Assembly (NCBI GenBank): GCA_965263295.1
Contig: OZ253665.1
Location: forward strand, 928,001 to 992,000
Length of the DNA stretch: 64,000 nucleotides
Direction of reading: 5' to 3'
From: Spirochaetia bacterium
GTDB lineage: Bacteria > Spirochaetota > Spirochaetia > SP-2023
Positions 3,094 to 63,543 of this stretch are shown here, piece by piece. Under the pieces are notes generated by a model. That model was given only the letters and a program-made list of their open reading frames with translations. It was not told where the DNA came from and searched no databases. Every line of letters starts with the position of its first letter. Within the stretch, counting starts at the first letter, position 1. A program made the translations under genes and the position numbers.

Positions 3094-3527
3094 CCCGCAG
3101 CCCCCCGTCGTGCCACCCGCGGCTCCGCCGTCTAGATTTCGTGACTTTTCGCTGTCTTCGTGCAATTCGTGGTTCCCTTTAAAAGTCCCTGGCCGAGTAA
3201 CCACGAACAACACCAAAAATTCTAAAACACCGCGCCTGCTGCCTGGACGCCCTTCTTGGCTGCCGTCCCCTTTTTTCCTGCCTCCTTGCCACCCAAAGGA
3301 AAATTTCCGGCCCCCCTGCCTAAATTTCGTGCCCTTTCGCCCTCTTTCGTGCACTTTCGTGGTTCCCCCTTTAAAGTTCCCCTGTCACCCACAGCCCCCC
3401 ATCGTTTCACCCGCGGCTCCCCAGCCTAACTTTCGTGACCTTTCGCTGTCTTCGTGCCCTTTCGTGGTTACTATTTCGTGCCTTTTCGCCACTTTTCGTG
3501 TAATTTCGTGGTTCCTTTCGTGATCCC
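3094..3527 (+). repeat. Modular intergenic repeat cluster 1 (TTCGTG/CACGAA ladder family)
   Basis: Repeated modules ccacccgcggctcc, tttcgtg..tttcgc..tttcgtg..ttcgtggtt and gtaaccacgaa..aattctaaaacaccgcgcc, shared with six other loci in the window. Confidence 0.92.
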
Positions 3528-3529
3528 AC

Positions 3530-3569
3530 AAAAAAAACGCCGCCCACTGTCTTTCGACAGGAGGCGGCG
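3530..3569 (-). terminator. Intrinsic terminator of the SEDQP lipoprotein gene
   Basis: Hairpin cgccgcc/ctgtc-GAAA-gacag/ggcggcg followed by T8 on the minus strand, about 50 bp after the stop codon. Confidence 0.7.
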
Positions 3570-3616
3570 CGGCGTAGGCAAAAAGGCTAACGCGAAAAGT
3601 TAATTACCCAATATAA

Positions 3617-4930
3617 TTATGGAGCAGTAGGCTTAAACCCTGTCAAAGTAATTTCTTTATCATTTCCATGATTTTTAATGGTGACTTTTAAAGTTCCCGC
3701 ATCGTCATCAGCATCGCTAAACTCAATGTCACTATCAGGCAAAGCGCTTAAACCATCAATAGCTTTAATGGCTGCTATAATTTCACTATGATCAACATCA
3801 GATGCCTTCTTAGTCGAGTCAACAGTATAACCTGCTATTGAATCTGTGGGCAAATTTTGCACTGCCTCTTTCAAGTCCTTTGTAGCAGTAGATTGATCCT
3901 CAGAAGGTTGATCCTCAGAAGGTTGATCCTCAGAAGGTTGATCCTCAGAAGGTTGATCCTCAGAAGGCTGATCCTCAGAAGGTTGATCCTCAGAAGGCTG
4001 ATCCTCAGAAGGTTGATCCTCAGAAGGTTGATCCTCAGAAGGTTGATCCTCAGAAGGTTGATCCTCAGAAGGCTGATCCTCAGAAGGTTGATCCTCAGAA
4101 GGCTGATCCTCAGAAGGTTGATCCTCAGAAGGTTGATCCTCAGAAGGTTGATCCTCAGAAGGTTGATCCTCAGAAGGTTGATCCTCAGAAGGCTGATCCT
4201 CAGAAGGTTGATCCTCAGAAGGCTGATCCTCAGAAGGTTGATCCTCAGAAGGCTGATCCTCAGAAGGTTGATCCTCAGAAGGTTGATCCTCAGAAGGTTG
4301 ATCCTCAGAAGGTTGATCCTCAGAAGGCTGATCCTCAGAAGGTTGATCCTCAGAAGGCTGATCCTCAGAAGGTTGATCCTCAGAAGGTTGACCCTCAGAA
4401 GGTTGATCCTCAGAAGGTTGATCCTCAGAAGGTTGATCCTCAGAAGGTTGATCCTCAGAAGGCTGATCCTCAGAAGGTTGATCCTCAGAATAATCCATAG
4501 TCAGTATAAAAGTCTTTGGTTTCGCCCAGTCATACCCGGTCAAGGTCCTCATGTCGTGGGCGGAAATTGGGATTCCAATTTTTTGGGGTCGGGGCTTTGA
4601 GACCTCAAAATTATAAACTGACTCTAAAATCTTCTTAAATTGTGTCTTACAAATTTTCTCATCATCAGTTGCTAAAGGATTATCAGCTAACTTTTGAGCT
4701 TCCGTAAAAAATTTGTCTACAATCTTATCTATCTTATCTATGCCAATATCGTGATCGCCAAAATGAATTGTTAAAGACTCTGGCACACTCTCCATGAAAG
4801 TCGACCGGGCAGTCGGCTTAGGATCGTCAAAATCTTCGACCTGGCAAGAGAATATTAGCCCGGCCAGAAGAATTTGTACATATGCATAATATATATGCAG
4901 AAAAGAAAATTTCTTTATAGTATTTCTCAT
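3617..4930 (-). CDS. Surface lipoprotein with 40 SEDQP repeats and a C-terminal domain resembling mycoplasma lipoprotein-17 variable surface proteins
   Basis: GAGG RBS before ATG 4930, lipobox LAGLIFS-C, 200-aa acidic repeat, C-terminus DDDAGTLKVTIK...EITLTGFK. Confidence 0.8.
   Translation of the reverse strand: MRNTIKKFSFLHIYYAYVQILLAGLIFSCQVEDFDDPKPTARSTFMESVPESLTIHFGDHDIGIDKIDKIVDKFFTEAQKLADNPLATDDEKICKTQFKKILESVYNFEVSKPRPQKIGIPISAHDMRTLTGYDWAKPKTFILTMDYSEDQPSEDQPSEDQPSEDQPSEDQPSEDQPSEGQPSEDQPSEDQPSEDQPSEDQPSEDQPSEDQPSEDQPSEDQPSEDQPSEDQPSEDQPSEDQPSEDQPSEDQPSEDQPSEDQPSEDQPSEDQPSEDQPSEDQPSEDQPSEDQPSEDQPSEDQPSEDQPSEDQPSEDQPSEDQPSEDQPSEDQPSEDQPSEDQPSEDQSTATKDLKEAVQNLPTDSIAGYTVDSTKKASDVDHSEIIAAIKAIDGLSALPDSDIEFSDADDDAGTLKVTIKNHGNDKEITLTGFKPTAP
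3890..4489 (-). repeat. Coding tandem repeat, 15 bp x 40 (tctgaggatcarcct = SEDQP)
   Basis: Counted directly. Variation is limited to synonymous CAA/CAG, one GAT>GGT change and a terminal SEDQS unit. Confidence 0.98.
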
Positions 4931-5174
4931 TGTGAAATTCCTCAAAATTAAATTAAAAAATTAATTACTTAAACGTAACAATCTAAACGACTTCAGGCTG
5001 ATTACCAGAGTCGTTACTAGGTGTAAAAAAAATTGCCGCTGTGGCAAACAGGTTCCCAAAATGTATTTTTAACCAATAATAACCTCCTTGTGTCATCGCG
5101 TCAGATCGCTGCACAAAAATCTATGATACACATACAATAATTCTATTCGGTGATAAAATCAATCATCTTGAGAT

Positions 5175-5475
5175 AAAAATACGAAAAATTTTAGAATGCA
5201 GCTCCCCATCGTTTCACCCGCGGCCCCCTATCTAAATTTCGTGCCCTTTCGCCACCTTTCGTGCACTTTCGTGGTTCCCCTTTCACAGACCCTGGCCCAG
5301 TAACCACGAAATACACAAAAAAAGAACGAAACAACACGAAAAATTCTAAAACACCGCGCCTGCTACCTGGACGCCTCCCCCAGCTCCCCGCGGCTCCCCT
5401 ATCTAGATTTCGTGACTTTTCGCCGTCTTCGTGCTTTTCGTGGTCCCTCTTTCGTGGTCCCCGTCGTCCATTTGG
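5175..5475 (+). repeat. Modular intergenic repeat cluster 2
   Basis: TTTCG at 5237, 5247, 5257 and 5267 (exact 10-bp period); inverted ladder with CGAA at 5307, 5327 and 5337; then the GC core and a further TTCGTG ladder. Confidence 0.92.
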
Positions 5476-5728
5476 ACTTACCACTCAGCCAGATATCTAA
5501 AGGGTTATCATATATTGCGACACTGCGGGGCTATCGAAAATGAATTATGGTTAAAAAATAGAGTCGATTATGACTTCCATGATTTATTGCATCACAGCAT
5601 AATCGGACTGCAGATTTTCCCATGCCGTCTGCACCATTCTGAATCACTGCGAAATTTTAATTCTAGTCCCAAGCCTGCTCCATTGTGTTGGAGAAAAGGG
5701 GCAGGTCGAACCAAAGGAGCCGCCGTAA

Positions 5729-6553
5729 ATGAGTAATCTAATTGAAGTTTTGCAGCATATCCCAGTGCTCGGCATGGAAGTCATTTCCCTGCTGATTTAC
5801 TTCAGTTTTATTATCGCCTTCTATATTCTACTAGGAAAAGAAGGAATCTATACATTTATTGTTGTTGCCGTTATTGGCGCAAACCTGCAGGTCATGAAAG
5901 TCGTCAATTTCCCCTTCTTTCAAGATCCAGTCGCTCTGGGGACCATACTTTTTGGCAGTACCTACCTCTGTACCGACATCCTCGCCGAATACGAAGGGCA
6001 CAGGGCCGCTCGCAAGGGTGTCTGGATCGGTTTTCTAACCATGTTATTGTGGACCATTATAACAACGCTAACAATTGGCTTTCAGCCTCTTGATCCGGCC
6101 ACAACTTCACCTGAATGGGCCTGGGCCCTGCCCGTACAAAGCCAAATCGCCAATCTGTTTACCAGCGTGCCTTCACTGTTTGTTGCCGCCATGAGTGCTT
6201 ACTTGATCAGTCAAATGCACGATATATTTATTTACCGGGTATTGCGCAAGCGCCACGGTCAGAAGTTCCTGTGGTTGCGCAATAACCTCAGTACCATGAT
6301 ATCGGCTTTACTGGACAATACTGTCTTCAGCTTACTGGCCTGGATTGTTCTGGCTGAAGAACCCCTAGAACTGCGCGTGGTTGTACGTACCTATATTTTG
6401 GGGACCTATGTCATCCGAGTGGCCATCGCTCTGCTCGATACTCCTTTTTTGTATCTGCTGCGCTACGCTGGCCATTGGCAAAAGACTCTCCACGTCAAAA
6501 ATTTTAGGCGGCTTACAAGCTGGCGCTCGCTGTTCATGAATACAGACGATTAA
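5729..6553 (+). CDS. Queuosine precursor transporter (VUT/YhhQ family)
   Basis: Motifs ANLQVMK, TDILAEYEG..AARKGVWIGF, AYLISQMHD and LWLRNNLSTMISALLDN. AGGAG RBS. Confidence 0.88.
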   Translation: MSNLIEVLQHIPVLGMEVISLLIYFSFIIAFYILLGKEGIYTFIVVAVIGANLQVMKVVNFPFFQDPVALGTILFGSTYLCTDILAEYEGHRAARKGVWIGFLTMLLWTIITTLTIGFQPLDPATTSPEWAWALPVQSQIANLFTSVPSLFVAAMSAYLISQMHDIFIYRVLRKRHGQKFLWLRNNLSTMISALLDNTVFSLLAWIVLAEEPLELRVVVRTYILGTYVIRVAIALLDTPFLYLLRYAGHWQKTLHVKNFRRLTSWRSLFMNTDD

Positions 6554-6600
6554 ATCCCCATTGACAACTTCTGTAATCTCCGGCACCTGCTCAATATTTT

Positions 6601-7302
6601 CTAGTTCGTCTGCTTCCCATTCTTCGTATGCGGCTTTTTATCCTGTGCTTGCAAAGCCTGGTTCAGCAGGCGGGCAAAATGGCCATTGTCATATGCTCGG
6701 CTACGCGCTTCCTTTTCCAACCTCCAGGCGGCCATGTCGCGAAGGAGGTGCTGGTCCGCGCCATTTACAGAAGCATCCGAGAGGCCACGTTGATGGACCA
6801 GGCAGATAGCCGCAGCCAAAGCGTCGGCGGCATGATCGGAACGCTTTACCTGACCGGCGTCGTCACTTGCCCCATGAACTTCGGCGCGCAATCCCAACAA
6901 TAAGCCGACCATCTCCTGAACCTGCTGTTTGGTGGCCTTGCCATTGCCCGTAACCGCCTGCTTGATCAAATTTGCAGAGAATTCAAATACGGGCACCTCG
7001 TGTTGAGCCGCACAGAGCAGGGCAACACCTCGTGCATGAGCGACAGGCAAGGCACTGCTACAATTTTTGTTGAAATACAACTTTTCTACCGCGCAGGCCT
7101 GAGGCCGGTGCAGGGAGAAAATATCTTGCAGTTGCTTGTGGATTTCACGTAAGCGCCCGGCTAAATCCTGGCAGCTTGTCGTGCGAATTTCACCACAAGC
7201 CAGCAGGCGGAGTCGAGCCTGAGGCCCCCGTGGCAAGGCGAGCACGCCCCAACCACAATGCGCCAAGCCGGGATCAATCCCCACGATATTTATATTGCTC
7301 AA
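6601..7302 (-). CDS. ruvC: Crossover junction endodeoxyribonuclease RuvC, with a C-terminal extension
   Basis: Motifs IVGIDPG, AVEKLYF, HARGV, IKQAVTGNGKATKQQV and DHAADALAAAIC. TTG start at 7302 chosen (GGAG upstream; the longer ORF would run through a terminator). Confidence 0.92.
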   Translation of the reverse strand: MSNINIVGIDPGLAHCGWGVLALPRGPQARLRLLACGEIRTTSCQDLAGRLREIHKQLQDIFSLHRPQACAVEKLYFNKNCSSALPVAHARGVALLCAAQHEVPVFEFSANLIKQAVTGNGKATKQQVQEMVGLLLGLRAEVHGASDDAGQVKRSDHAADALAAAICLVHQRGLSDASVNGADQHLLRDMAAWRLEKEARSRAYDNGHFARLLNQALQAQDKKPHTKNGKQTN

Positions 7303-7341
7303 ACCTGTGTTCTCCGAATTTGACCACTCGTATAAAATATG

Positions 7342-7367
7342 AAAAGGCGGGTCACAACCCGCCTTTT
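7342..7367. terminator. Intrinsic, potentially bidirectional terminator
   Basis: aaaaggcgggt-caca-acccgcctttt, just after the stop of 7386..8036. Confidence 0.75.
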
Positions 7368-7385
7368 TCGCGAACTCAACTGCGC

Positions 7386-8036
7386 TTAACCACAGCCACA
7401 ACCCCCACCACAGCAGCCACCGCCGCCCATTCCGGCTTCGACCATACTGGCACTGCGAGCGGAAATATATTTATTGTAGCGCTCTTCAATTAACTGATAA
7501 GGGATTTCCTTGGAGTCGGGCTTTAAATCCTTATAATACGTAAGAGCTTCACGAATAATTTGCGCCTTCTTTATGGTATCCTGAAAATAACGATTGCACG
7601 AAGTTGCAGCTGGCTGTTTTTCTCCGCATGCTTCACCAATGCTATCGCGCAGATACAACATGACCGAACCCAAGTCATCCAGCCCGGTTTCAACCACGGT
7701 TTCAATAATTTCTTTTTCGGTAACTTTCTCACAATAGCAAATATAGCTATTTTGAGCGCCATCTTTGAACCAGATGCCGACAGCACAATCGCCATTGGTA
7801 AACACTTCGTTAGTATTGGGATCAAAGTAAGAAACTTCACACGAAGGATTTAAGCAGAGATACGGAGTCTCTCCGCCATATGTTTTGGCAATCTCGTCCT
7901 TCAAAATATTGCCGAGTAAATCAATGTTTACCGGGTGAGCCTGTGAGCCACACTTGGGACAAAACCTTGTCAGGCGCCCCCCTGTTTGAGCTCCACTGCC
8001 GCAACCACAGGCTTCTGAGCCACATCCTCCAGACAT
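7386..8036 (-). CDS. Cys-rich metal-binding protein (CopZ-type zinc-binding domain + BFD-like [2Fe-2S] domain, Csac_0668-like)
   Basis: CPKC...YLCLNPSCEVSYF...IWFK...YICYC pattern, Gly/Cys-rich termini and a GGAGG RBS. Confidence 0.7.
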   Translation of the reverse strand: MSGGCGSEACGCGSGAQTGGRLTRFCPKCGSQAHPVNIDLLGNILKDEIAKTYGGETPYLCLNPSCEVSYFDPNTNEVFTNGDCAVGIWFKDGAQNSYICYCEKVTEKEIIETVVETGLDDLGSVMLYLRDSIGEACGEKQPAATSCNRYFQDTIKKAQIIREALTYYKDLKPDSKEIPYQLIEERYNKYISARSASMVEAGMGGGGCCGGGCGCG

Positions 8037-8198
8037 AAGACCTCCTAAATTACAGCATTTGCATGCCGACTAGAGAGACAGATTATAATCTAAATTATTG
8101 ACCTTTGTCCAGCGAAATCCGAAAAAGCCATAAATTACATTGCCAGCCGAGATTTAGACTCCTCCCGCCATTGCGATTAATGGCAGCCATAATTGGCC

Positions 8199-9794
8199 TC
8201 ACATCGACAATTTGATAACATTCAGATCGGGAAGCATTTCTTTATAACGAGTTTGCAGTGCCCGAACACTATTCGCAAACAGACGCTTGTTCAGACCGGC
8301 CAGGTCACGACTTGGCTCCAGGTGCAAAGACTTCAGATCGACCGGCTGGCCGTAATGCCTGACCTCATAGTGCACATGGGGACCTGTAGCCCTGCCGGTG
8401 CTACCGACATAACCAATAATATCGCCCTGACGCACACGAGAACCGACGCGGTAGCCGGGCTGGAAGCGGCTCATATGCCCGTACACAGTATCGTAACCAT
8501 TCGCGTGGCGAATGATAATGTGGTAACCATAACCAATCCTACTCCAGCCGCGCGCTATGATCGTGCCGGATCCCCCTGCCTTAATCGGGGTCCCTGTCGG
8601 AGCCGCATAGTCGGTACCACGGTGCAGACGCCAAGTTCCCATAATTGGATCGCGGCGATAGCCAAAGGGTGAAGATATATACGCCCCGTTCACCGGCATC
8701 AGCAAGAGGGCCTTGCTGGCACTGCGTCCCTCAGGGTTAAAGAAGTCAGATTTACCCGCTAAATCAGTATATTCAAAAATTGGGAAGCTCTTGCCATCAG
8801 CTAGCGTGATATTGGCATAAACAATCTCTCCCGATGCCACTCGCTTATTATTTTCATTGTAAATCATAGTATATATCAGCTCATAACGAGTCCCGCTCTG
8901 GATATCACTCTGGAAATTAATGTCGAAACTATAGCGGTTAAACATATCCAACAGAATTCCGCCGGGAACGCCTTGGTCGACGCCATCCTGATAAAGCGAG
9001 CGCGTTACCGTTACTTTTTTATTAAAGGTCTTCGGATTTAGTTCGTGGTAGCGTATTTCATTTCTAGGCTCGCCCTGGTATAGATAGGTATTAACTGTTT
9101 TTTCCCTGCCGTCAATCTCAAACCCCACCAGGTGCCTACCCTCGTCTGTTTCGTCGGAAAAAAACAGCCGGATGGGATCTTCTGCGCTCAAATGCCCCAG
9201 ATTGACATCATCGCGCACACTCAGAGCCAAAGCGGAACTCTGTTTCTGAGTCAGGCCATAACGTTTCAGGAACGAAACCAGGGCTTCATTGCGTTGTAAG
9301 TGTCCGGTTTCTGTACTCAGCGAACTTTTCCAGTCTTGCCAGCTTTCTTCTGGGCCAACGGGCTCGCTGGATGCAACGTAATCATCCCGATTCAGTGCCG
9401 CATTTTCCGCTTTCGCCGCAGACAATCCCGGAGCCAGCCAAGAGACCCAAAGAAACGCATAAGCAATTAGCAATAAAATGCTGCTAACAATTCCTACAAT
9501 TCCTAAATGTAGAGGATGAGTGATAAAAGCATAAAATAATGAACGATTTGAATTTCTGGGCTCCAGGTGGCGACTAGCCCAGAGGCCAACAGCAGGAATC
9601 TCTTCGTGCAAGGACTTTGCCTCAACACCCACCTTGTTGTCTATGTTCAGTAAGCGGCGGCCATTCGAAAAATAACTGCGCCAAGGGCGCCTTTTTGCCG
9701 CCGCGGCAGGGAAGTACTCACGGTTACGACTAGTATCGTTTGTCCGGTCTGCTTCATCTTCCCAGGCATTCTTCGAATAATTCATTTTGTCCAT
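8199..9794 (-). CDS. Membrane-anchored M23 family peptidoglycan DD-endopeptidase
   Basis: Motifs ISSPFGYRRDP, HRGTDYAAP, YGHM and STGRATGPHVHYE; one N-terminal transmembrane segment; GGAGG RBS. Confidence 0.92.
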   Translation of the reverse strand: MDKMNYSKNAWEDEADRTNDTSRNREYFPAAAAKRRPWRSYFSNGRRLLNIDNKVGVEAKSLHEEIPAVGLWASRHLEPRNSNRSLFYAFITHPLHLGIVGIVSSILLLIAYAFLWVSWLAPGLSAAKAENAALNRDDYVASSEPVGPEESWQDWKSSLSTETGHLQRNEALVSFLKRYGLTQKQSSALALSVRDDVNLGHLSAEDPIRLFFSDETDEGRHLVGFEIDGREKTVNTYLYQGEPRNEIRYHELNPKTFNKKVTVTRSLYQDGVDQGVPGGILLDMFNRYSFDINFQSDIQSGTRYELIYTMIYNENNKRVASGEIVYANITLADGKSFPIFEYTDLAGKSDFFNPEGRSASKALLLMPVNGAYISSPFGYRRDPIMGTWRLHRGTDYAAPTGTPIKAGGSGTIIARGWSRIGYGYHIIIRHANGYDTVYGHMSRFQPGYRVGSRVRQGDIIGYVGSTGRATGPHVHYEVRHYGQPVDLKSLHLEPSRDLAGLNKRLFANSVRALQTRYKEMLPDLNVIKLSM

Positions 9795-10173
9795 AACAAC
9801 CTCCCTCTTTCAGTCTTTAAGACCCGACAGAAGTCCCCCTCAAGCTGTCTCAGCGGCTTGCATGACACAAAAGTTTAATAATATCGAAACAAAATCAATA
9901 TAAATATCGGGCAATCATAAATATTAGGAAATATTAATTCAAGGCATTAATTGCAGCAATTTAGTACAATTACAAATCTAGACACCATTCGGAGCCAGCA
10001 ACTAAAATGCACACCCATCACAAAACAGCGGATAATTTTGCGAACTATTTTCTACATTTAGATAGAAGCATTTATCATGTATTTAACCCAGTATCCCAAT
10101 ATTTGCCAATGAGTCATCAATTGAGCTCCAGAAGCTTTAAGATTATCTTCTTCCTCACGCCGCCGGCGACAAA

Positions 10174-11961: not shown

Positions 11962-11989
11962 TAAATAACTGCTACTATGCAGTAGAATT

Positions 11990-12062
11990 TAGCAGGGGTA
12001 GGACTCGAACCTACGGCCTTCGGGTTATGAGCCCGACGAGCTGCCAACTGCTCCACCCTGCG
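11990..12062 (-). tRNA. tRNA-Met (CAT), initiator type; CCA not encoded
   Basis: Cloverleaf with anticodon arm TCGGG-CTCATAA-CCCGA (three consecutive G-C pairs), unpaired C1 and a GTTCGAG T-loop. Confidence 0.97.
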
Positions 12063-12078
12063 ATCTGTAACTAAAACT

Positions 12079-14814: not shown

Positions 14815-14850
14815 CCTGCCTAAATTTCGTGGCTTTCGTGCTTCCCCCCC
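14815..14850 (+). repeat. Short relic of the ladder repeat family
   Basis: cctgcctaaatttcgtggctttcgtgcttcccc matches cctgcctaaatttcgtgccctttcg in cluster 1. Confidence 0.6.
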
Positions 14851-15462: not shown

Positions 15463-15494
15463 CAGAATTTTTTTCTTTAGTAGAATGACACGGC

Positions 15495-34866: not shown

Positions 34867-35100
34867 TCAGCACTCCAGTGGCCAAGTTTATTCTGAAAAC
34901 GGCCATTTGTCCAGCAAAAATCTTCTATCTGGCACCTGTGCCGAAGGAAAATGCAAGGAAAATGCAAGGAAAATTATAAGCGCTTAGGCCCGGCGTAACC
35001 ACGAGGCCACAGAAATCTAAGTTCAAGTTCCAGGCCTCCAGCCTGTGTGGCCAAATTAGAAACCACTTCAAGGTCGTCTTTAAAGGCGACCTGCCCCAGC

Positions 35101-46213: not shown

Positions 46214-47010
46214 TTGAAACCTCCTTTGAAATCCGTTTCAGGTGTTACCTTTCTTTAATATAGCCATCTAGTCCAATTTAGGCAAGGGCTCAGACGTGAG
46301 AAAATGATTTTAGACTTTACATTTAAATAAATTATATAACTTGTGAAAAAATCCATATTTTGCACAATCCTTGAAATAATCGTGAAGCCAGACTCTTTAA
46401 AACTGCTTAATGCTGACAAAACCCTGTTTGCCACATCTCGGCTCCGACACAGCACTCAGCCCAGGTTGCAATCTGATGTTGCTGAGAGCAAAGCATAGTT
46501 GAGAATTGGTAGGTTAATATGCAACTTTTACTCCTTTCGGCAGGCAACACACATGATGGTGTGAAGGATTAAAGTCATTGCCTAAAGGGCAGATTTGTCT
46601 AAAGCTGATTACGGTAATATAGAAAAATACTGTTGTCTTCTATTGAGAATGTGAAAAAAATACGCCAACAATATCCTAAATTCTTTACCTGAAGAATTGA
46701 AGAGCGAGTCCCGTGATGAATACAATGTTATAAAGTAGATTTCAAACAAATTGAAAGCTGTAGATATCTAGAGCAATTGGCTTTCTGAAATAAATGTAAT
46801 GCTTGCAATTAGATATGAACAGGCTCCAGAAACACTAGACCTTGTGTTTTAAATTGGCCGCGCGAAATTATGGAAGGGCTTAAAAAAGGCAATCTTCTAT
46901 AAAGATTACATGAGACGACTGAAAAGTGTCAATCAGCTAAACATCAACCATTGAACACTTTATCCCTTAAATTATCTTTACATAGCGACAATTTAAAGGA
47001 CGTAATATAA

Positions 47011-47097
47011 CGGAGAGAGAGGGATTCGAACCCTCGGTACCCTTGCGAGTACAACTCCTTAGCAGGGAGCCCGATTCAACCGCTCTCGCATCTCTCC
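47011..47097 (-). tRNA. tRNA-Ser (GCT)
   Basis: GGAGAGA acceptor stem, CT-GCT-AA anticodon loop, long variable arm, GTTCGAATC; CCA not encoded. Confidence 0.96.
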
Positions 47098-47143
47098 GAT
47101 GGCAAAATGCACAGAAAAACTGCGCAGTAAAACTGCACTAGCT

Positions 47144-47228
47144 CGGAGAGAGTGGGATTCGAACCCACGGTAGGTTGCCCTACGCTGGTTTTCAAGACCA
47201 GAGCCTTCAACCACTCGGCCATCTCTCC
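47144..47228 (-). tRNA. tRNA-Ser (TGA)
   Basis: Anticodon arm CTGGT-CTTGAAA-ACCAG, long variable arm, GTTCGAATC; CCA not encoded. Confidence 0.96.
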
Positions 47229-53142: not shown

Positions 53143-53145
53143 GCC

Positions 53146-53742: not shown

Positions 53743-53840
53743 CTTAATTAAAATTCGGGTCATGATTAGCAGAATGGGTCTCTAAGCAGGGGTATTAATG
53801 AGGGGGACATTCTGATGGGGCTTGGCGTTATGCCAATAAT

Positions 53841-53938
53841 CCGGCGCATCGCCATGCGATACGAGCGTTGCGCACACACCTTTGAATCGGCAATTTACAT
53901 AGCGGCAAGCGTCTTGTTCTGGATATGAGTCCTGAGCC
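53841..53938 (+). mobile_element. 3'-end remnant of the same IS5-family element as at 17916
   Basis: Encodes RRIAMRYERCAHTFESAIYIAASVLFWI*, then atgagtcctgagcc, the reverse complement of 17916-17929. Confidence 0.85.
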
Positions 53939-53944
53939 TTTCTG

Positions 53945-54138
53945 GCCCTTTCGTGGTTCCTTTCAAAGTTCCCTGGCCAAGTAACCACGAAATACACTAA
54001 AAAATACGAACAACACGAAAAATTCTAAAGCGCCCCCCCCGCCTGAACGCCCCCGCGCCTCCCGTCGTCCATTCGGCCCCCTTTTCTGCTTTCCCCTGGC
54101 GCCCACAGATCCCCGTCGTGCCACCCACGGCTCCCCAG
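53945..54138 (+). repeat. Modular intergenic repeat cluster 3
   Basis: ttcgtggttcc-linker-gtaaccacgaaatacactaaaaaatacgaacaacacgaaaaattctaaa followed by the GC core. Confidence 0.9.
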
Positions 54139-54381: not shown

Positions 54382-54925
54382 CTAACCAGAAACTTTAGTT
54401 TTACCATCCTTCCATGTAACCCAAATATTCAGATCAATTTTCTTTGAGACATCAAAATTCTTTACGGTTACAGTTTTCCAATCCCAATTTTCCTGGTAAC
54501 GAATCCAGTTTTCCAATAGGTCCCCACCTAACCCCCTCTGTTTGACTTGACTTGTCAGAATTTGGGAGGTATCTTTTAAAGGAAGGTTGAGGGCACCACC
54601 CAGAGGGATTCGACTCCGGTCGCAGGGTAGCAGCTTGTTGAGAACGAGTGATGCCCCGCTCTCCGCTTTCTCTTTCTTCAATGTTCTATACGTCATGAAT
54701 AACATTGGTTGGAGGGAGGCTTTTTCCACCTCATGTGAAGCTAATGTCGGTCCTGCGTTTGATAATCAATAATAGTTTGTAACATTTGACTCTGTTTTTT
54801 TGAGTAAATTCTTTTGAGAGTCTGAGACCGGCTAGCCTAATTAGAAACTGGATATCACTGTCTTTCCACGGGATCAGTTTGTGAGCATATTGGCCCTCTA
54901 TGCCTCTAAAATAAACGTGTGGCGT
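54382..54925 (-). pseudogene. Truncated or frameshifted unknown gene
   Basis: Two abutting protein-like frames (54731.. and 54382..54729); the 5' end runs directly into repeat cluster 4. Confidence 0.4.
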
Positions 54926-54928
54926 CAC

Positions 54929-55028
54929 AGTCCCCTGGCCCCGTAACCACGAAAAACACCAAAAAATACGAAACAACACGAAAAATTCTAAAACACCGCG
55001 CCTCCCGTCGTCCTTCGCCCCCAGCTCC
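54929..55028 (+). repeat. Modular repeat cluster 4 (AACCACGAA ladder + GC tail)
   Basis: agtcccctggccccgtaaccacgaaaaacaccaaaaaatacgaaacaacacgaaaaattctaaaacaccgcgcc. Confidence 0.9.
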
Positions 55029-55191
55029 TTTAGTTTTCCGATAGCTTGACGCCCCTTTACAGCTTGGGGATGCTCCGCAACTCCTCCTTGAGCTTTTTAA
55101 AGGCAGCCTCTTGTTTTTGGCCTTCTGCTTAGCGTGTGGGAGAATTATTTTTTTTTGGGGGGAGGGAGGATTCCTTTGAAGCCTCTTCCCT

Positions 55192-56412: not shown

Positions 56413-56438
56413 AATTGGATATCCGCCTTCCTGATTTA

Positions 56439-56453
56439 TGTAATGCTGTAGCA
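56439..56453. promoter_or_regulatory. Possible Zur-type operator upstream of the CobW gene
   Basis: TGTAAT-N3-GTAGCA, a 12/15-type match to the proteobacterial TGTTAT-N3-ATAACA palindrome, about 27 bp upstream of the ATG. Confidence 0.4.
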
Positions 56454-56509
56454 CTTTATAATCTAATATCTTGAAATTTCAAGAGGCGAGACTTGATAAA
56501 TTTGATTAC

Positions 56510-56550
56510 TATTTTTTAGTGTTTTTCGTGGTTACTTGGCCAGGGACTCT
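56510..56550 (-). repeat. Modular repeat cluster 5 (inverted half unit)
   Basis: tattttttagtgtttttcgtggttacttggccagggact is a near reverse complement of 54929-54968. Confidence 0.85.
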
Positions 56551-56576
56551 GAGACGGAGTGACAAAGGGCATCAAG

Positions 56577-57398
56577 CTAGCGAACTTCGTAGCGATCAAT
56601 GGTATATTGGCCCATACTCAGACGCACCCGAGCGACTATTGCACCATTGTCTACAGATATTTCTGGCACCGCGCTGAAGGCCAGGCCGACTTGAATCTGG
56701 GCGGGCTTATTGCGCAGTTGGCGCCGGAAATACCTACGGATCGCTTCTTTGATGCCGTTATCAATAGCAGTTTTACGTAGCCGGATCATCAATTCTGGGA
56801 CCAAATTACCAGGGCTATCGTCAGCTCCCGCACCAGCAGTTGCGAGATCAACCACACCGCGCGCCTGCAAGGTCTTTTTGTCGGCCTGTTCCCAGGACTG
56901 GACATTAAAATCTTCAAAACGGCTGAGTTGCTTGCGAATAGAATAATAAAATCGGTGACCGACGTTGGAAACGTGATAAATATCCAAGTCTGTTGGGCTG
57001 ATAAGTTCTGTATTCTTTGGAATAACTAGAAATGTTTCATCCTGGCGATGGAAGTGGTCTGGCGGTCGGTAAACCACTTGAAAGCCATAAACCATTCCGT
57101 GGAAAACGTAACTGGCTTCATCGCGAACAAAGTTCTGGGAAGCGCGAATCAAAGCTTCTGGCTCAGATATCTTGGCACCTTGACGCTCTTGATTGCCAGG
57201 GAAAACGACTAGATTCAGGCCAAGATCCAGCCAAAAAGTCCCACTGAGACTGCGATGTTGTTGAGCCTGGCCAGTCTGTGCCGTTAAGCCCGCGAGAGCG
57301 AATACCCAGGTTTGTAGTGCCAAGAGAGCATGCGAAAAGCGCGCGCCATTAAATATATGGCGACATATGCGGCGACACGAATACTGCCAGCTAAGCAT
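56577..57398 (-). CDS. Exported hypothetical protein
   Basis: 273-aa ORF with signal-like N-terminus and a GMVYGF...Y.P.D motif seen in spirochaete hypotheticals. Confidence 0.65.
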   Translation of the reverse strand: MLSWQYSCRRICRHIFNGARFSHALLALQTWVFALAGLTAQTGQAQQHRSLSGTFWLDLGLNLVVFPGNQERQGAKISEPEALIRASQNFVRDEASYVFHGMVYGFQVVYRPPDHFHRQDETFLVIPKNTELISPTDLDIYHVSNVGHRFYYSIRKQLSRFEDFNVQSWEQADKKTLQARGVVDLATAGAGADDSPGNLVPELMIRLRKTAIDNGIKEAIRRYFRRQLRNKPAQIQVGLAFSAVPEISVDNGAIVARVRLSMGQYTIDRYEVR

Positions 57399-57424
57399 CT
57401 CGCTAATCCCCTAATTCGTCAAAA

Positions 57425-59065
57425 TCAAAATGGCTCGTGACCCGTTGCGACTAAGTTTTGCGTTGGCTGCGTGCGATTTGAATCGTTGACACTACTGTTG
57501 TAGAGCCGAATATATTCACTTAAATTGCTCTGCCAGGAAAAATCTTGCTCCATGCCGCACTGCTTCATCGCCCAGAGCTGCCTGGGCTTCCGATGCCAAA
57601 GGTAAAAGGCTTCTTTCAATACCTCGCCCAACTCCACAGGTGTCGCATGGTCAAACAACAAGCCATTTTTCCGATGCTGAATCGTATCCGCTAAGCCGCC
57701 AGTTCTCCGCACGATGGGAGTCGTGCCGTAACGCAGCGAATAAATCTGGTTCAAACCACAAGGCTCGTACTGGCTGGGCATGATAAAAAAGTCCGCCGCA
57801 GCGGTCAGGATATGCGCCATTTCTTCGTGAAAGTAGTTTAAAAATACAAAGCTTTGCGGATACTGCCAGGCAAACATTTGTAATTGCATTTCCAGCTGTT
57901 GCTCGCCTTCCCCCAGAATAATCAACTGGCAACGACTTAAGGATAGCGCTTCCAACATCGGCCCACTGCCGTGTACTTTATTATCCGTTTCATCGTGGTA
58001 GAGGCCAAACAGCTGATCCAGCCCCTTTTGCTTCACGATACGGCAAATACTGATGATCAACGGCAGCTTGGGATTCAAGGCAAACTGTATGCGTTGCTGC
58101 AAATACTTACGCCAATATATTTTGGCTTTGCGAACCTCACGCTTTTTAGCTTTGTAGGTATATTCTTTTAAATATGGATCACGGCTTGGATTCCAACTAG
58201 TATTATCCACGCCATTGAGGATGCCGCAGAAATCGTTGCTGCGTTGTTGCAGAACTGGCGAAATCTTTGCTCCTTGAGTGAGCAGCTCGCGGGCGTGGGT
58301 TGGCGATACTGTGTTTATCCGCTCTGCGTACTTGAGCCCAGTAGCCAGCAAATTGACTTGCCCTTCGTATTTCCATGCATCAATTTTGAAGTTATGGGAG
58401 ATCGCAATCCCCCACTGCCGCAGCAAGCTGTAAAAGTTATTGGCAATGATTTCGTCAAAAGTGCCCATGTATTCCGCATTGTGTATGGTAAACACACTGG
58501 GAATTTTACGGCTGGCAAAATTATGTAGCAACGCGGGCAAGTGGTGATTGAAATAAGGGTAAAGACCACAAAGCCAATCGTGACAATGCACCAAATCTGG
58601 TTTCCACAAAATACTCGGATTCTCAGCAATGGCAAATGGTGCCAAAGCTAAAAGTATGGCTTGCAGCAAGTCCAAGGATGAATCATTCGCCGAATAGCTT
58701 GGCGTATATGGCTCATGGATAGTGCCTAGAGCGGGGTGTTTTATCAGGTAAAATATATGCTTGGGATAATCTGGATGTGCGCATTCTTCCAGTAGAAAAA
58801 ATGGCAACCGAGGGTTAAAATATTTATTGCGCAACATTAGATTAATATGGCGATAACCCAACAATACGGTACGCACTTCCATACCTTTATCAATCAGGGC
58901 CTGGGACAAGGAAGTCACGACATCAGCTAACCCGCCAACTTTAGTAATAGTTCCCCACTCTGGGGCCAGAAATAAAACTTTTTGCACGGCTTTTCTTTCT
59001 GTCTCCATATCGTCATGGCCGGGAATCAAATTTTTTGTTAAGTTGCCGAACTTGTTCATAGTCAA
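57425..59065 (-). CDS. glgA: Glycogen synthase (GT5)
   Basis: KVGGLADV, HCHDW, FTIHN, GILNGVD, QKG, PSQYEPCGLNQ and TGGLADT. Confidence 0.93.
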   Translation of the reverse strand: MTMNKFGNLTKNLIPGHDDMETERKAVQKVLFLAPEWGTITKVGGLADVVTSLSQALIDKGMEVRTVLLGYRHINLMLRNKYFNPRLPFFLLEECAHPDYPKHIFYLIKHPALGTIHEPYTPSYSANDSSLDLLQAILLALAPFAIAENPSILWKPDLVHCHDWLCGLYPYFNHHLPALLHNFASRKIPSVFTIHNAEYMGTFDEIIANNFYSLLRQWGIAISHNFKIDAWKYEGQVNLLATGLKYAERINTVSPTHARELLTQGAKISPVLQQRSNDFCGILNGVDNTSWNPSRDPYLKEYTYKAKKREVRKAKIYWRKYLQQRIQFALNPKLPLIISICRIVKQKGLDQLFGLYHDETDNKVHGSGPMLEALSLSRCQLIILGEGEQQLEMQLQMFAWQYPQSFVFLNYFHEEMAHILTAAADFFIMPSQYEPCGLNQIYSLRYGTTPIVRRTGGLADTIQHRKNGLLFDHATPVELGEVLKEAFYLWHRKPRQLWAMKQCGMEQDFSWQSNLSEYIRLYNSSVNDSNRTQPTQNLVATGHEPF

Positions 59066-59406
59066 GCAGATTATCGGAATGGCATAGAATTTTTAAAATT
59101 AAAAAATCACGGGAGAAGCTATAAATATTCTTTGCAGACATTCTTAATTGTGAAAATCGAATCAATTATACCATAAAATATAAAAATTCATGTATCCTAA
59201 ACTAAAATAATTTCAGCTAGCTACTTTTTTGAAATTTTAATGTGCAGCTATGAGTAGCTTTTTCTTTTTCAGAGAATATTTTGAAAATATATTTTAAGCT
59301 CGTGTGAAAAAAAAGTAAAAAAAATCATCAAAGAATGCGAAATTTTTCTTTATAGTGCCGATATACTGAATACTAAACCAACATCAAGACAAGGAGTCGT
59401 ATTAGT

Positions 59407-60630
59407 ATGTTACGCAAAATTCTTTTGCCCTTAGTTTTGCTACAGTTAGCAGCTGCGCTGTACGCCAAAGATGAAATCTGGATTGATTTTGGAGCTTTGC
59501 CTTCTGGCTATATGCCTGCAGGTGGTTCTTATATCCGTCAGTATGATCCCGCCCCTATTGCGGAAGATGACGATACTGTAGTGGATTACTCCAACGTTTA
59601 TGATCCGTTTAGCCGTGCATCGCAGAATCTTCTGCCCAGCCGTTTTTCAGACCAGACGGCCCAAAATGGCAACCAGGCTTACGACGAAATGAAACTTTCT
59701 CTGGCTCTTGATCGCTGGCAGATTAAGCTTTCGGGTTCTTCAAGTTTCCAGGACACTCAAACCAGCACTCAGGTTCACGCTTACAAAGTCAAGGATTCTT
59801 CCAGCCGTTTTGCCGGCGAGCAAATCATGGCCGCTCATTTTTCTTTGCCCAAACTATCTGTAAACTCCAAAGTCTGGATTACTCCCGAATTCGCAATTCC
59901 TGCTTATTCAGTCGCCCCGAGTACCGACATCCAGGAATCCGTTAATAAATCGGCTATGGAACGGATGGGGCAGTTCCTTCACAAAGGAGTTCTGCGCAAC
60001 GTAGGTCCCATTCGCTCAATTACTGCGACTGTTTATGGTCGCCGTTTCCCGTTGGACTTGACTATTGAGGCCGATCATACGGACAAAGGCAGTCGCGAAT
60101 ACAACATGGGTAGACTGCAATTTTCCGGCTGGCAAGATCTAGTCTGGACCAATCCGAACTACACCATTGATGTTCGCAAGCGCAATTACAACACTAACCC
60201 TGAATATCCGCGCGGTATGCCTTCTATGATCTTGCGCGCTCTGCGCTTGGATCGCTCTCTCCACTCCGTTAGTGAAGGATCATCTCAGGTCGTATTTTAT
60301 ATCAAGCAAATATCCGTTGTTTATGATGACTCTATCTCTGAAACTTTTGATTCTGAAATTGACGATGAACAGATTTGGCAATTGAATACAGTGAACTCTC
60401 AATTGCACAGTTATGACCAGGCTCTCCAGTCCCGCATTAATACTGTAGATCGATATCTTGAACTGCAAGATCGTCATCCTGCTTTTACGGCTCAGGAGAC
60501 TACTGATGGCGGGAATGCAGCTCCTGAAGTTGGTGGCGAAAACGCAGCTCCTGAAGCTGGTGGCGAAAACGCAGCTCCTGAGGCTGGTGGCGAAAACGCA
60601 GCTCCTGAGGCTGAACCTGCTGCCAACTAA
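59407..60630 (+). CDS. flaA: Flagellar filament outer layer (sheath) protein FlaA
   Basis: Signal peptide; IDF, MKLSL...W, P.FAIPAY, GVLRNVGPIRSI..TVYG, MG.L.F.GW..L.W.NPNY, FYIK.I.V.YD. AAGGAG RBS. Confidence 0.88.
   Translation: MLRKILLPLVLLQLAAALYAKDEIWIDFGALPSGYMPAGGSYIRQYDPAPIAEDDDTVVDYSNVYDPFSRASQNLLPSRFSDQTAQNGNQAYDEMKLSLALDRWQIKLSGSSSFQDTQTSTQVHAYKVKDSSSRFAGEQIMAAHFSLPKLSVNSKVWITPEFAIPAYSVAPSTDIQESVNKSAMERMGQFLHKGVLRNVGPIRSITATVYGRRFPLDLTIEADHTDKGSREYNMGRLQFSGWQDLVWTNPNYTIDVRKRNYNTNPEYPRGMPSMILRALRLDRSLHSVSEGSSQVVFYIKQISVVYDDSISETFDSEIDDEQIWQLNTVNSQLHSYDQALQSRINTVDRYLELQDRHPAFTAQETTDGGNAAPEVGGENAAPEAGGENAAPEAGGENAAPEAEPAAN
60508..60612 (+). repeat. 27-bp coding repeat (GGENAAPEA x3 plus one degenerate copy) at the FlaA C-terminus
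   Basis: Units start at 60532, 60559 and 60586. Confidence 0.9.
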
Positions 60631-60701
60631 AAGCTAGCAAAAAAACCAGCCGTTTAGCAAGGAGGCGTAAGGCAGGTTTCTTTGTATCTAACTCTTAGGG
60701 C

Positions 60702-60736
60702 AAAAAAGGCACTCTCATTATGAGGGTGCCTTTTTT
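60702..60736 (+). terminator. Intrinsic terminator of flaA
   Basis: aaaaaaggcactctca-tta-tgagggtgcctttttt. Confidence 0.85.
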
Positions 60737-60782
60737 GCTGCTTTGTCCTCCTACGTTCAGACTTTGTAACTTTGCATGAAAA

Positions 60783-61107
60783 GGGAACCACGAAAGGCAC
60801 GAAAGACGGCGAAAAGGCACGAAATTTAGGCGGGGGAGCCGCGGGTGGCACGATGGGGAGCTGCGGGTAACCGGGAAGCTTTAAAGGGAACCACGAAGGG
60901 CACGAAGACGGCGAAAGAGGGACCACGAAAGTGCACGAAAGACGGCGAAAAGGCACGAAATTTAGGCGGGGGAGCCGCGGGTGGCACGATGGGGAGCTGC
61001 GGGGGGCGTCCAGGCGGATGGGCTCTTTAGAATTTTAGAATTTTTCGTGTTGTTTTGTATTTTTTTAGTGTTTTTCGTGGTTACTTGGCCAGAGTCTCTG
61101 AAGGGGA
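60783..61107 (-). repeat. Modular intergenic repeat cluster 6
   Basis: Reverse-orientation ladders with an internal duplicated segment of about 70 bp. Confidence 0.92.
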
Positions 61108-61142
61108 AAGGCGAAAATATTTTGTAAAATATTTTAAAATAC

Positions 61143-61171
61143 TTGTCAAAGTTGGTTTGGGGCTATATACT
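61143..61171 (+). promoter_or_regulatory. Sigma70 promoter of the Ig-like lipoprotein gene
   Basis: TTGTCA-N17-TATACT. Confidence 0.7.
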
Positions 61172-61300
61172 AGAAATGTTCTAGGTGCTTCTATTGGCAA
61201 GTTTGCCCGTGCCTGCGAACCATTATTATTATTTTCTATTTCATATCGTTCCTCATTTAAAATTTTTAGCCCACATTCTTTTTGTAAGGAGGATACAGAT

Positions 61301-63049
61301 ATGTCATCTGACCTAATTTTTAAACGGCTCTTTGCCGTCAGCTTCGCGCTTTTGGCCCTGTTTGTTTGGGGTTGTGAGGATTCATCCGATTCGGACTCTG
61401 GGCCCAAAACATTAATAGACCTGGACTCAAGGAGACTTGAGCAGGCCGGGGAATTTGAATTTTTTATTGATTCCTTTATGAAGGACGAACACATCGTCTT
61501 GCAAGACGGCGAGCTGGCCGCGCAGGAGCTGGCCGATTTTTGGGCTGACGTGGCCGTGCGCTGGGGTCTGCGCCAGAAAATGGCAGACAGTGAGGCGACA
61601 GATGAAGCCGCCGAAAATTCAGAAGCTGAAGCAAGCGCCTCTGAAGATTCTGCTGAGACTGCGGATGAAATTCCCGAAACTTTCTGGCTGCAGCGGAGTG
61701 AAAATTACAATGATGAGGGCGATGCCACTGAATATCAGATCACGGCCGCAGAGGGTGAAAAACAATTTTTTGTCCTCGATGCTCAAGATTGGAAAGATAA
61801 TTTGCCCGATCATTTTCCCGTTGAATGGTCCAATATTTCCGCCGGTGAATTAGAGGTGGTGGTTGAAGCTTTCTTGGCCACCCAAACTGCCGAAGGGCAA
61901 TTCCAGGCCACGGCCAGCATTGAGCTGCCCGCAGAATTCTCGACGGATGTGGCCGCGCCGCTGAGCTTTACGCGGCCGACGGTTGGGGACTCTGGCACGG
62001 CCAGGGTGGGCCAGGATATTGAGTTTGCGGTGAATGTGAGCGACGAGGAATCACCGGAATCAAGTGTCTTTGAATATCTGTGGGAGTACCAGGCCCCTGG
62101 GGCTGGCGACTGGACGCTAGGCGCGCAGACAGAGGCTTTTACGCTGGCAACGCAGGGTTTTGAAGCAAGTGAGGATCCGTATCAAGTGCGGGTGACGGTC
62201 ACGGATGAGGACGGCAGCAGTGCCGAAGCAACCTACCGCTTGACCCTGCAGGCCAACCATGCGCCGAGGCCAACGTTTGATGAAGATGGGACGACGGTTG
62301 CAGAGGATGAATGGTTTCATCTTGCGGATATAAATACTGGCACGCCGCAGACCTTCATTGTTCAAGGTAATGACGAAGATGGTGGTGAGCTGACCTACCG
62401 CTGGGAGGTCAATGGAGTGGAGCAGGAAGGCGAAACAGGCCCGGAAGCAAGCCTGACCTTGTACTCGCCGCTAAAGGGTTTGAGTCAGGAGAAGATTGAA
62501 GCGATGAGCACCGATGAGCGCCACAAGTTGGTGGTAAAAGTAACGGTGACGGATGACATGGGGGAGGAAGCTCCGATATCTCGAACGCTGTACGTGAACG
62601 TGGTGCCGACGACGACGCTAGAGTTTGATTCTGAGATATCTTCATCTCATGAAGGTGGTACTTTTTTTATGAATGCTCTTGAACCGTCTGGTGACGATTA
62701 TTACTTTTTCATAGAAAATTTGCGTTTGAATGTGGTCGCTGAGGACATGGATGGCGATAGTAATGGTGGGTGGATTACGTGGGAATGGAAGCTCAATAAT
62801 CGCGATCTAGATTTAGACATAGGCAATTTCGCTCAGACCGTGATGCCTGATTTATATAACTCATATTTTATTTCTGTGAGATATGAGTTACTGCAGGAGA
62901 TTGAAGAGGAGCAGAATGGTGCTGACCCCATTAAATTGGAGTTTGCGATAACGGCAATAGATGAAGATGGCGGACGGAGTAGACCCGTAATGCGAACGTA
63001 TTACTTGCATCTCTACCGCGAGGGCGAGGGCGCTAATGGGGAAGACTAG
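61301..63049 (+). CDS. Highly acidic lipoprotein with tandem PKD/Ig-like domains
   Basis: AAGGAGG RBS; lipobox LFVWG-C; repeated pattern D.DG..L.Y.W...V.VTVTD.DG. Confidence 0.8.
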   Translation: MSSDLIFKRLFAVSFALLALFVWGCEDSSDSDSGPKTLIDLDSRRLEQAGEFEFFIDSFMKDEHIVLQDGELAAQELADFWADVAVRWGLRQKMADSEATDEAAENSEAEASASEDSAETADEIPETFWLQRSENYNDEGDATEYQITAAEGEKQFFVLDAQDWKDNLPDHFPVEWSNISAGELEVVVEAFLATQTAEGQFQATASIELPAEFSTDVAAPLSFTRPTVGDSGTARVGQDIEFAVNVSDEESPESSVFEYLWEYQAPGAGDWTLGAQTEAFTLATQGFEASEDPYQVRVTVTDEDGSSAEATYRLTLQANHAPRPTFDEDGTTVAEDEWFHLADINTGTPQTFIVQGNDEDGGELTYRWEVNGVEQEGETGPEASLTLYSPLKGLSQEKIEAMSTDERHKLVVKVTVTDDMGEEAPISRTLYVNVVPTTTLEFDSEISSSHEGGTFFMNALEPSGDDYYFFIENLRLNVVAEDMDGDSNGGWITWEWKLNNRDLDLDIGNFAQTVMPDLYNSYFISVRYELLQEIEEEQNGADPIKLEFAITAIDEDGGRSRPVMRTYYLHLYREGEGANGED

Positions 63050-63158
63050 AATGAAATGAGAGCCATTGCGTTCAACTATGTAATAATCATGGAAGGGATC
63101 TAGGCATCGTAGTCAATCAAGCGTGAGTGACGGCAGCCTATGCTCAATTTTTTCATCC

Positions 63159-63543
63159 GGGACCACGAAAGAGGAACCACGAAAAGCACGAAGACGGCGA
63201 AAGAGGGACCACAAAAGGCACGAAGACGGCGAAAAGGCACGAAATTTAGGCTGGGGAGCCGCGGGTGGCAGGGAGGCAGGCGCGGCGCTTTAGAATTTTT
63301 CGTGTCGTTTCGTACTTTTTTAGTGTTTTTCGTGGTTACTTGGCCCGGAACCACGAAAGGCACGAAGACGGCGAAAAGGCACGAAATTTAGGCTGGGGAG
63401 CCGCGGGTGGCAGGGAGGCAGGCGCGGCGCTTTAGAATTTTTCGTGTCGTTTCGTACTTTTTTAGTGTTTTTCGTGGTTACTTGGCCCGGGGACCACGAA
63501 AAGCACGAAAGAGGGCGAAAGGTCACGAAAGTTAGACAGGGGA
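63159..63543 (-). repeat. Modular intergenic repeat cluster 7 with an exact 135-bp duplication
   Basis: 63214-63348 is identical to 63356-63490 (period 142 bp). Confidence 0.95.

Follow-up and report, generated by a model that had tools for sequence, protein, structure and literature searches.

Which element, and which enzyme, lies behind the ladders of short TTCG/CGAA motifs that recur in the window analysed here, a 64,000-nt stretch of a Spirochaetia bacterium genome (GCA_965263295.1, contig OZ253665.1, positions 928,001-992,000; coordinates prefixed C1 refer to the genome contig)? The initial annotation had listed seven clusters and two relics, and had read them as protein-binding arrays on one face of the helix, akin to transposon or recombination ends rather than to REP hairpins or CRISPR. 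All seven clusters lie where they had been placed, some of them being partial and two inverted relative to the first clusters (60783-61107 and 63159-63543), and both relics are present, the one at about 34988 being weak (Table 1). The window contains 13 ladders with at least three rungs and 10 with at least four, compared with means of 0.16 and 0, respectively, in 100 third-order Markov simulations of the window. Genome-wide, 121 right ladders with four rungs were counted, as against 0 in each of five block shuffles, and the ladder repeats occupy about 0.9% of the chromosome.

Table 1. Ladder repeats and adjacent predicted lipoprotein genes in the window (feature, position in the window, strand, composition or remarks).
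Mosaic array	3094..3527	+	core, right ladder 3137-3173, linker, short left ladder 3198-3226, core, right ladder 3325-3363, core, right ladders 3431-3468 and 3474-3512, extra terminal rung
Predicted lipoprotein gene	3617..4945	-	between two same-direction arrays; lipobox judged by eye
Array	5175..5475	+	partial left arm, core, right ladder 5237-5275, linker, complete unit 5301-5444, extra terminal rung
Relic	14815..14850	+	core end and shortened right ladder
Weak relic	34988..35015	+	linker end and left ladder start
Partial unit	53945..54138	+	terminal rung, linker, left ladder 53982-54029, core; without full right ladder
Partial unit	54929..55028	+	linker, left ladder 54944-54992, truncated core; without full right ladder
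Left arm alone	56510..56550	-	truncated left arm and linker
Array	60783..61107	-	right ladders 60787-60824 and 60922-60960, core, left ladder 61034-61083, linker
Predicted lipoprotein gene	61301..63049	+	dispersed family of 8 copies; lipobox judged by eye
Array	63159..63543	-	two near-identical complete units in tandem and extra ladders

The order of left ladder, core and right ladder described by the annotation stands as part of a cyclic order, in which the right ladder is joined by a linker of 10-30 bp to the next left ladder, followed by core and right ladder. The exact 10-bp spacing is found as described, with TTCG at 5238, 5248, 5258 and 5268. In right ladders throughout the genome the first spacing is 10 in 120/121 and the following two are each 9 or 10, while in left ladders it is 9 in 54/54, then 10-13, then 9 or 10. 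Units measure 105-265 bp and are mosaics of reused modules with ragged boundaries over 69 stretches; the joints between modules spread out around the last rung of the right ladder. A CRISPR array was rejected, as in the annotation, the constant repeats and unique spacers of even length being absent. An Rfam search of the window matched tRNA as the sole family, the unit was unmatched in 72,556 plasmid records, and BLASTN with the unit matched 0/30 relatives, genus mates included. Each of 51 units tested folds over its whole length, whichever strand is taken (mean z -3.2 and -3.7), so that the demarcation from REP hairpins had been drawn too strongly; moreover, a single nuclease gene accompanied by many gene-less units, as described below, corresponds to the layout of REPIN/RAYT or Ssn/NTS systems.

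A unit enclosing an enzyme gene does exist in this genome, outside the window. The gene, at about C1:1901341-1901742, is the only GxxExxY (PD-(D/E)XK) gene of the genome and resides within a unit in its densest unit cluster, with core and right ladder on one side and the left ladder on the other. The association with GxxExxY genes that the annotation had mentioned is thereby borne out. The protein is a member of the GxxExxY/PDDEXK_3 family (TIGR04256, 148.1 bits against a cut-off of 35; PF13366, 147.2 against 22), has the GxxExxY motif and, in an alignment of 22 sequences, retains the invariant residues E37, D77, E87, K89, H98, Q101 and Y105. It departs from the alignment in a decayed ladder-coded N-terminus and in an alanine replacing the proline before the catalytic aspartate. 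The structure model has a pLDDT of 66.8 (52.7 for the poorer single-sequence fold), and its best structural match is the restriction enzyme SwaI, with Z 7.0, under the guide value of 8 (rmsd 3.2, 112 aligned residues); no solved structure matches the protein by sequence. The family has been described as of unknown function and as having undergone multiple transfers (PMC3424549). That passage and the literature listings searched name no repeat partner or mechanism, and the pairing with ladders is likewise undescribed in these listings, which are mainly of freely available papers.

Ladders also frame GxxExxY genes in other phyla. Among 80 foreign loci, 79 have full flanks, and all 79 carry a ladder on one side or both: a left ladder upstream in 65, a right ladder downstream in 64, and both, in the inverted layout, in 54. 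Control windows far from the gene contain ladders in 52 and 36 of 1113 cases. The same ladder word occurs on both sides in 68/71 scorable loci, and gene-less units are present in 36/80. As this genome's gene sits in a unit and every full-flank foreign homologue has a ladder, the gene-less units are best described as derivatives of a putative GxxExxY nuclease cassette framed by inverted CACGAA/TTCGTG ladders. The rung period in close foreign relatives is 9 bp in 291/300 short spacings, about 50 degrees per rung off a 10.5-bp turn, and the placement on one helix face is not supported; the 10-bp spacing is a variant of this genome. Coding constraint is at most a partial cause of the 9-bp period, since only 25/55 ladders upstream of the gene can be read in frame without a stop (p 0.04, with one third expected). 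In 44 foreign cassettes, comparison of one arm with the other finds 865/924 rung positions complementary, as against 154/264 linker positions (shuffled mean 138, p 0.006); the motifs are conserved over the linkers, in agreement with the earlier remark that the bases between motifs differ. The ladder word is distributed according to the protein tree and not according to the host (CACGAA, 7 changes against 32 when shuffled; quick tree of 105 rows), the tree mixes phyla, and the protein of this genome falls into the CACGAA group. This match does not amount to proof of a predicted recognition, because cassette and word are inherited together. Across 300 genomes of the phylum, GxxExxY is present in 13/20 genomes with at least four ladder matches and in 56/280 others, kin not being independent. 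One genome, G277, has 398 ladder matches and about 200 clean units with no GxxExxY match (assembly in 220 contigs, many of which break off at a unit).

The arrangement recalls two known systems. The Ssn nucleases of Neisseria, with their NTS/SRM repeats and NIME/dRS3 arrays (PMC11893778; PMC1797815), likewise comprise a small nuclease gene of one domain that is flanked by its own repeat, hundreds of scattered repeat copies, and mosaic arrays of variable length that lie beside surface-protein genes and coincide with recombination end points. They differ in having a GIY-YIG instead of a predicted PD-(D/E)XK fold and one 30-bp hairpin instead of two distant arms bearing a 9-10-bp ladder; Ssn has been shown to cleave in vitro, whereas cleavage by GxxExxY is putative, and whole genes are duplicated between arrays here, unlike in Neisseria. 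Similarly, REP/REPIN/BIME sequences with RAYT, in REPtrons and TIRtrons (PMC3733652; PMC5581495), combine one repeat-flanked enzyme gene per genome with many gene-less inverted doublets and tandem clusters carrying flanking DNA. The present genome shares the single enzyme gene flanked by an abundant repeat, but it has neither a Y1/HUH enzyme nor a GTAG/CGTC-tagged short palindrome, and the cassette tree does not follow the hosts. The Y1 transposase profile PF01797 gave 0 matches in this single-contig, 92.6% complete genome, the control being positive in 6/14. A spirochaete plasmid element also has free-standing mobile-element ends beside lipoprotein paralogues; it is, however, a different element with another enzyme and short stem loops, whereas the ladders here are chromosomal and lie where duplicated tracts end.

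Other candidate partners were considered. The sole GIY-YIG match of the genome lies in a 687-aa frame, and a small single-domain (Ssn) partner was rejected. Four-helix-bundle genes were rejected with a sub-threshold match here and matches without a ladder cluster in G277, G341 and G090, and a DUF8196/DUF3782-like cargo family was rejected with genus-mate copies mostly free of ladders. As regards an integron cassette array, two tyrosine recombinases are encoded in the genome, neither near a unit. Unit orientation relative to replication, judged by local skew, is shared by 41/54 units (20/29 after merging neighbours, p 0.06), and a replication bias is not established. Units lie within about 2 kb of 3/8 skew switches (p 0.02-0.13, with the threshold set afterwards), which is a weak hint.

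New here are the enrichment of paralogues at units and the ending of duplicated tracts inside them. Genes adjoining units have close paralogues in 37/109 cases, compared with 57/1799 other genes (genes called with a simple ORF caller, and as many as 7 of the 37 belonging to a tandem array). In 24/25 pairs in which both copies abut units, the similarity of the duplicates breaks off within the unit (tandem array excluded; pairs from one family are interdependent). This is the proper test, a repeat-end count of 35/268 being inflated by masking. Another 38 duplicate ends, not de-duplicated, have a unit at one copy only. In the window, the product of 3617..4945 (Lipoprotein_17, 27.4 bits against a cut-off of 22.4) belongs to a family of six paralogous genes, and the gene has an internal 15-bp tandem repeat. 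The gene 61301..63049, whose product gave only sub-threshold Pfam Ig/PKD matches, has arrays both upstream and downstream; all 8 copies of its family have a unit on one side or both, and the copy at C1:2086073-2087821 differs in 34/1749 bases. In a tandem pair of these genes, the spacer (C1:2085424-2086072) joins the downstream unit seen in the window to the upstream one. A coiled-coil gene occurs in 8 tandem copies that differ by 1.1% on average, while the 7 intervening units, 173-440 bp long, all differ. The units thus mark the edges of duplicated genes for predicted surface proteins and are likely recombination sites, which upholds the recombination part of the earlier reading.

A nuclease nicking at ladders, combined with host recombination that copies units and neighbouring genes, is the best explanation of these data, and we consider it somewhat probable. 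The GxxExxY nuclease would bind its own ladder, as folded single strand or as duplex, and nick at or near it; the cut would start host recombination, by which units and flanking genes would be copied to other units. Rung-to-rung slippage in the right ladder might produce the extra rungs and re-entries, and crossover between same-direction units might give head-to-tail joints and tandem gene arrays. Counting against this explanation are G277, the 7/20 ladder-rich genomes with no GxxExxY match, the ladder-free dispersal of cargo, the decayed N-terminus and the one-sided duplicate ends. In addition, no empty site was found in three genus mates. All three have a disrupted gene order around flaA, with no synteny downstream of it, and the cobW neighbour was not found in them with the query used. 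Contigs of four read-run assemblies break at units, and none convincingly skips a cassette; unit joints may stem from other copies.

The main alternative is passive spread, in which the GxxExxY cassette brought the ladders, the nuclease is idle, and homologous recombination and replication slippage of the host amplify units and shuffle genes in a rearrangement-prone genus, the units partly hitchhiking on genes that would duplicate in any case. It is possible, though on balance we find it unlikely. Ragged ends, mosaic modules, the units of G277, the decayed N-terminal repeat and the broken flaA gene order are consistent with it, as is the multiplication of one cargo family in all three genus mates (copy numbers 3, 13 and 10), with a ladder in 1/25 flank pairs judged by eye and 0 ladder matches in genome G003; as those copies are mostly without a ladder, ladders are unnecessary for dispersal of the family. 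Passive spread accords less well with the first right-ladder spacing, which is kept while linkers vary, with the intact catalytic residues, with the position of the gene in the densest unit cluster and with the enrichment of ladder-rich genomes for GxxExxY.

An element acting at the RNA level, whose arms would pair once transcribed and so loop out or stabilise the transcript in the manner of intervening sequences or REP hairpins, and which would be kept for transcript processing, appears improbable to us. The folding of all units speaks for it, as do the better folding of the gene-like strand in two units of the window (z -6.0 and -5.0 against -3.2 and -4.1), the linker complementarity slightly above shuffles, and a next gene on the same strand that fits restriction-modification patterns in at least 42/80 foreign loci. 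However, foreign cassettes show no sense-strand excess of G-U pairs (37 against 55), the mean z-scores of the strands are close, orientation to neighbouring genes is mixed, and the duplication ends stay unexplained. Least of all do we expect the units to be MITE ends with helically phased binding arrays, with the transposase or site-specific recombinase that moves them encoded at another locus, in line with the initial reading: inverted arms, repeated motifs, free linkers and the transposase-like gene remnant adjoining the 53945..54138 unit would suit such ends, but the period is 9 in relatives, the Y1 transposase is missing, integrase genes lie away from units, the enclosed gene is GxxExxY, and because fixed ends are absent and no target-site duplication was seen by eye, the units are no classic transposon ends.

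Returning to the nuclease-based explanation, a more far-reaching version, which we offer tentatively and regard as doubtful, is that GxxExxY proteins might form, beside RAYT and Ssn, a third class of small nucleases that recognise their own repeat, with a periodic ladder as target. One such pair of nuclease and ladder would have been domesticated here as an integrase-free cassette system spanning the chromosome, in which the one nuclease would activate about 100 units and the bracketed genes, mostly for surface lipoproteins, would be duplicated, turned into circles and inserted again at further units.

GxxExxY proteins form a large family that has been widely transferred, and a matched repeat would supply it with a concrete substrate; its putative activity thus becomes directly testable. 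Different clades with different ladder words would provide a natural set of specificities. The present genome displays the outcome of amplification beyond single cassettes, namely mosaic arrays, tracts ending in units and an expansion of predicted surface-lipoprotein families, in parallel to the NIME arrays of Neisseria but with an unrelated enzyme.

The ladder units of this genome, each made of a left ladder, a GC-rich core and a right ladder with TTCG/CGAA-type rungs, are very probably the gene-less ends of a cassette built around a GxxExxY gene, which encodes a small putative PD-(D/E)XK nuclease. The initial annotation had placed CACGAA ladders beside such genes in other phyla, and they are indeed there: of 303 homologue loci the best 80 were taken, 79 of them with full flanks, and an upstream CACGAA-type ladder is present at 65/79, its downstream mirror at 64/79, both at 54/79 and at least one at all 79, compared to 52/1113 (upstream) and 36/1113 (downstream) control windows. 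The word is identical on both sides at 68 of 71 scorable loci and follows the GxxExxY protein, not the host phylum, in a quick tree of 105 rows with many open forks, short and broken-frame rows being excluded. Gene-less left-right units occur at 36/80 loci, and N-terminal patterns place a restriction-modification gene directly after the cassette at 42/80 or more. The single GxxExxY gene of this genome is itself enclosed by a right ladder and core upstream and a left ladder straight after the stop. Its catalytic residues are intact, and the N-terminal consensus NHExHExHE, encoded by the upstream ladder in many relatives, now reads NDNKQERQE. A structure model from 22 sequences (pLDDT 66.8) bears no more than a modest resemblance to nucleases of the restriction type, with SwaI at Z 7.0. 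At a distant GxxExxY locus (L029, G002:C1:410101-413427), long tandem repeats precede the gene; their word is quite different, and the CACGAA ladder is absent.

The repeats themselves are real. All seven clusters and both relics described for the window were recovered, and ten ladders with at least four rungs were counted there, compared to none in 100 Markov simulations. The genome (2.41 Mb, a single contig, C1), whose spirochaete affiliation is marked by a FlaA gene, contains 121 four-rung right ladders and 53 pattern matches to complete units (105-265 bp, one a reversed duplicate); units total about 21.6 kb, or 0.9% of genome length, and merging those that lie within 15 kb of each other leaves 31 regions. 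Modules follow a cyclic order in which a short linker leads from a right ladder to a left ladder, after which come the GC-rich core and the next right ladder; the core directly continues the left ladder in 39/50 cases under a strict pattern. Past the last rung of a full ladder (154 pattern matches), the sequence re-enters the core (34), adds a rung (32), passes by a linker to a left ladder (27), re-enters at the second rung (21) or at the first or third (14), or is unique or other (26, some being left arms in backward reading).

Features of the window and of other loci (window positions refer to C1:928001-992000)
Feature	Position	Remarks
tRNA-Met	window 11989-12063	
tRNA-Ser	window 47010-47098	
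tRNA-Ser	window 47144-47228	
Transposase-like frame, C-terminal remnant	window 53760-53930	immediately precedes the 53945 unit; presumably IS5-like
Predicted lipoprotein family	window 61301-63049 (one member)	8 copies; beside units
Six-member family	window 3617-4945 (one member, - strand)	beside units; this member a predicted lipoprotein
SEDQP-encoding 15-bp tandem repeat	window 3890-4490	~40 copies, inside 3617-4945
DUF8196/DUF3782-like family (tentative lead)		5 copies; beside units
Small coiled-coil genes, tandem array of 8	C1:1907142-1912982 (locus L001:8140-13985)	beside units; short internal repeats variable in number
Ninth coiled-coil copy	C1:1929963-1930355	
GxxExxY gene	~C1:1901341-1901742	outside window
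Unit hot spot	1.90-1.93 Mb	
Duplicated stretches	C1:723066-729574; C1:1913075-1918427	longest 3.5 kb; phage-like genes by eye; a unit terminates one copy
MazEF-type pair	locus L002:9175-9734	beside or between units
Second small gene pair	locus L154	beside or between units

At foreign GxxExxY loci the ladder period is 9 bp (291/300 short spacings), and helical phasing, as initially proposed, is therefore not the conserved property, the 10-bp period being a local variant of this genome. Where the arms could be scored (44/80 foreign loci), rungs are complementary at 865/924 positions and linkers at 154/264, compared to 138 after shuffling, and no G-U excess was found on the sense strand of these cassettes. 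This pattern fits recognition of a word better than it fits a perfect stem, although 51/51 units of this genome fold end to end on both strands.

Recent paralogues make up 37/109 unit-adjacent genes, compared to 57/1799 others. In 24/25 pairs, the coiled-coil array excluded, the untranslated flanks of the copies are alike up to the unit and unrelated past it, which, at the level of sequence, supports the units as likely recombination end points. At 2.085 Mb two lipoprotein genes lie in tandem, and the spacer between them consists of the window's downstream unit fused to the upstream one, the outcome expected of crossing over between two flanking units, which might proceed by unequal exchange or via a circle. 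In the coiled-coil array the genes differ by 1.1%, and all seven intervening units are unlike in length and module content. A parallel is seen in a restriction-modification locus of genome G341, in which two small genes are bracketed by tandem units of 149 bp (L184, L185). The beginning of a gene for a restriction-modification subunit seems to be included in these units, and the bracketed genes resemble, by eye, a toxin-antitoxin pair.

By analogy to Ssn and NIME arrays, we lean slightly towards a mechanism in which the GxxExxY nuclease would recognize its own ladder and nick at or near it, whereupon host repair would invade another unit and copy modules together with neighbouring genes. Ssn cuts single-stranded DNA next to its own repeat (PMC11893778), and NIME arrays are located at recombination end points (PMC1797815). 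The main rival, passive spread by host recombination, appears less likely. Several results count against the favoured mechanism. No GxxExxY match was found in genome G277 despite about 200 clean units, although this assembly is split into 220 contigs. Among 300 genomes of the phylum, 13 of the 20 with at least four ladder matches have a GxxExxY match and seven have none, compared to 56/280 others with a match. Genus mates, too, have multiple copies of the DUF8196-like family, largely without ladders beside them, and gene dispersal in this genus thus does not need ladders. Unit orientation is only weakly biased with respect to replication, and the units show a weak tendency to lie at skew switches; no empty site was found in genus mates or sequencing-run contigs, and no circle was seen. 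The G277 units (L159-L183, L190-L193) are CACGAAT-type ladder hairpins of 60-100 bp with small nested palindromes between rungs. Gene order around flaA (L143-L145) differs in 3/3 genus mates, and the genus appears heavily rearranged.

The outer ends of the units are ragged and no target duplication was seen, so that neither the transposon-type ends initially suggested nor a MITE can be upheld; the units are likewise, as first stated, not a CRISPR. A literature search at the level of listings, covering few subscription papers, returned no description of the GxxExxY-ladder pairing. The ladder system resembles REPIN/RAYT and Ssn/NTS in its mode of working but differs from both in the enzyme, and it belongs to the same nuclease-plus-cognate-repeat kind.
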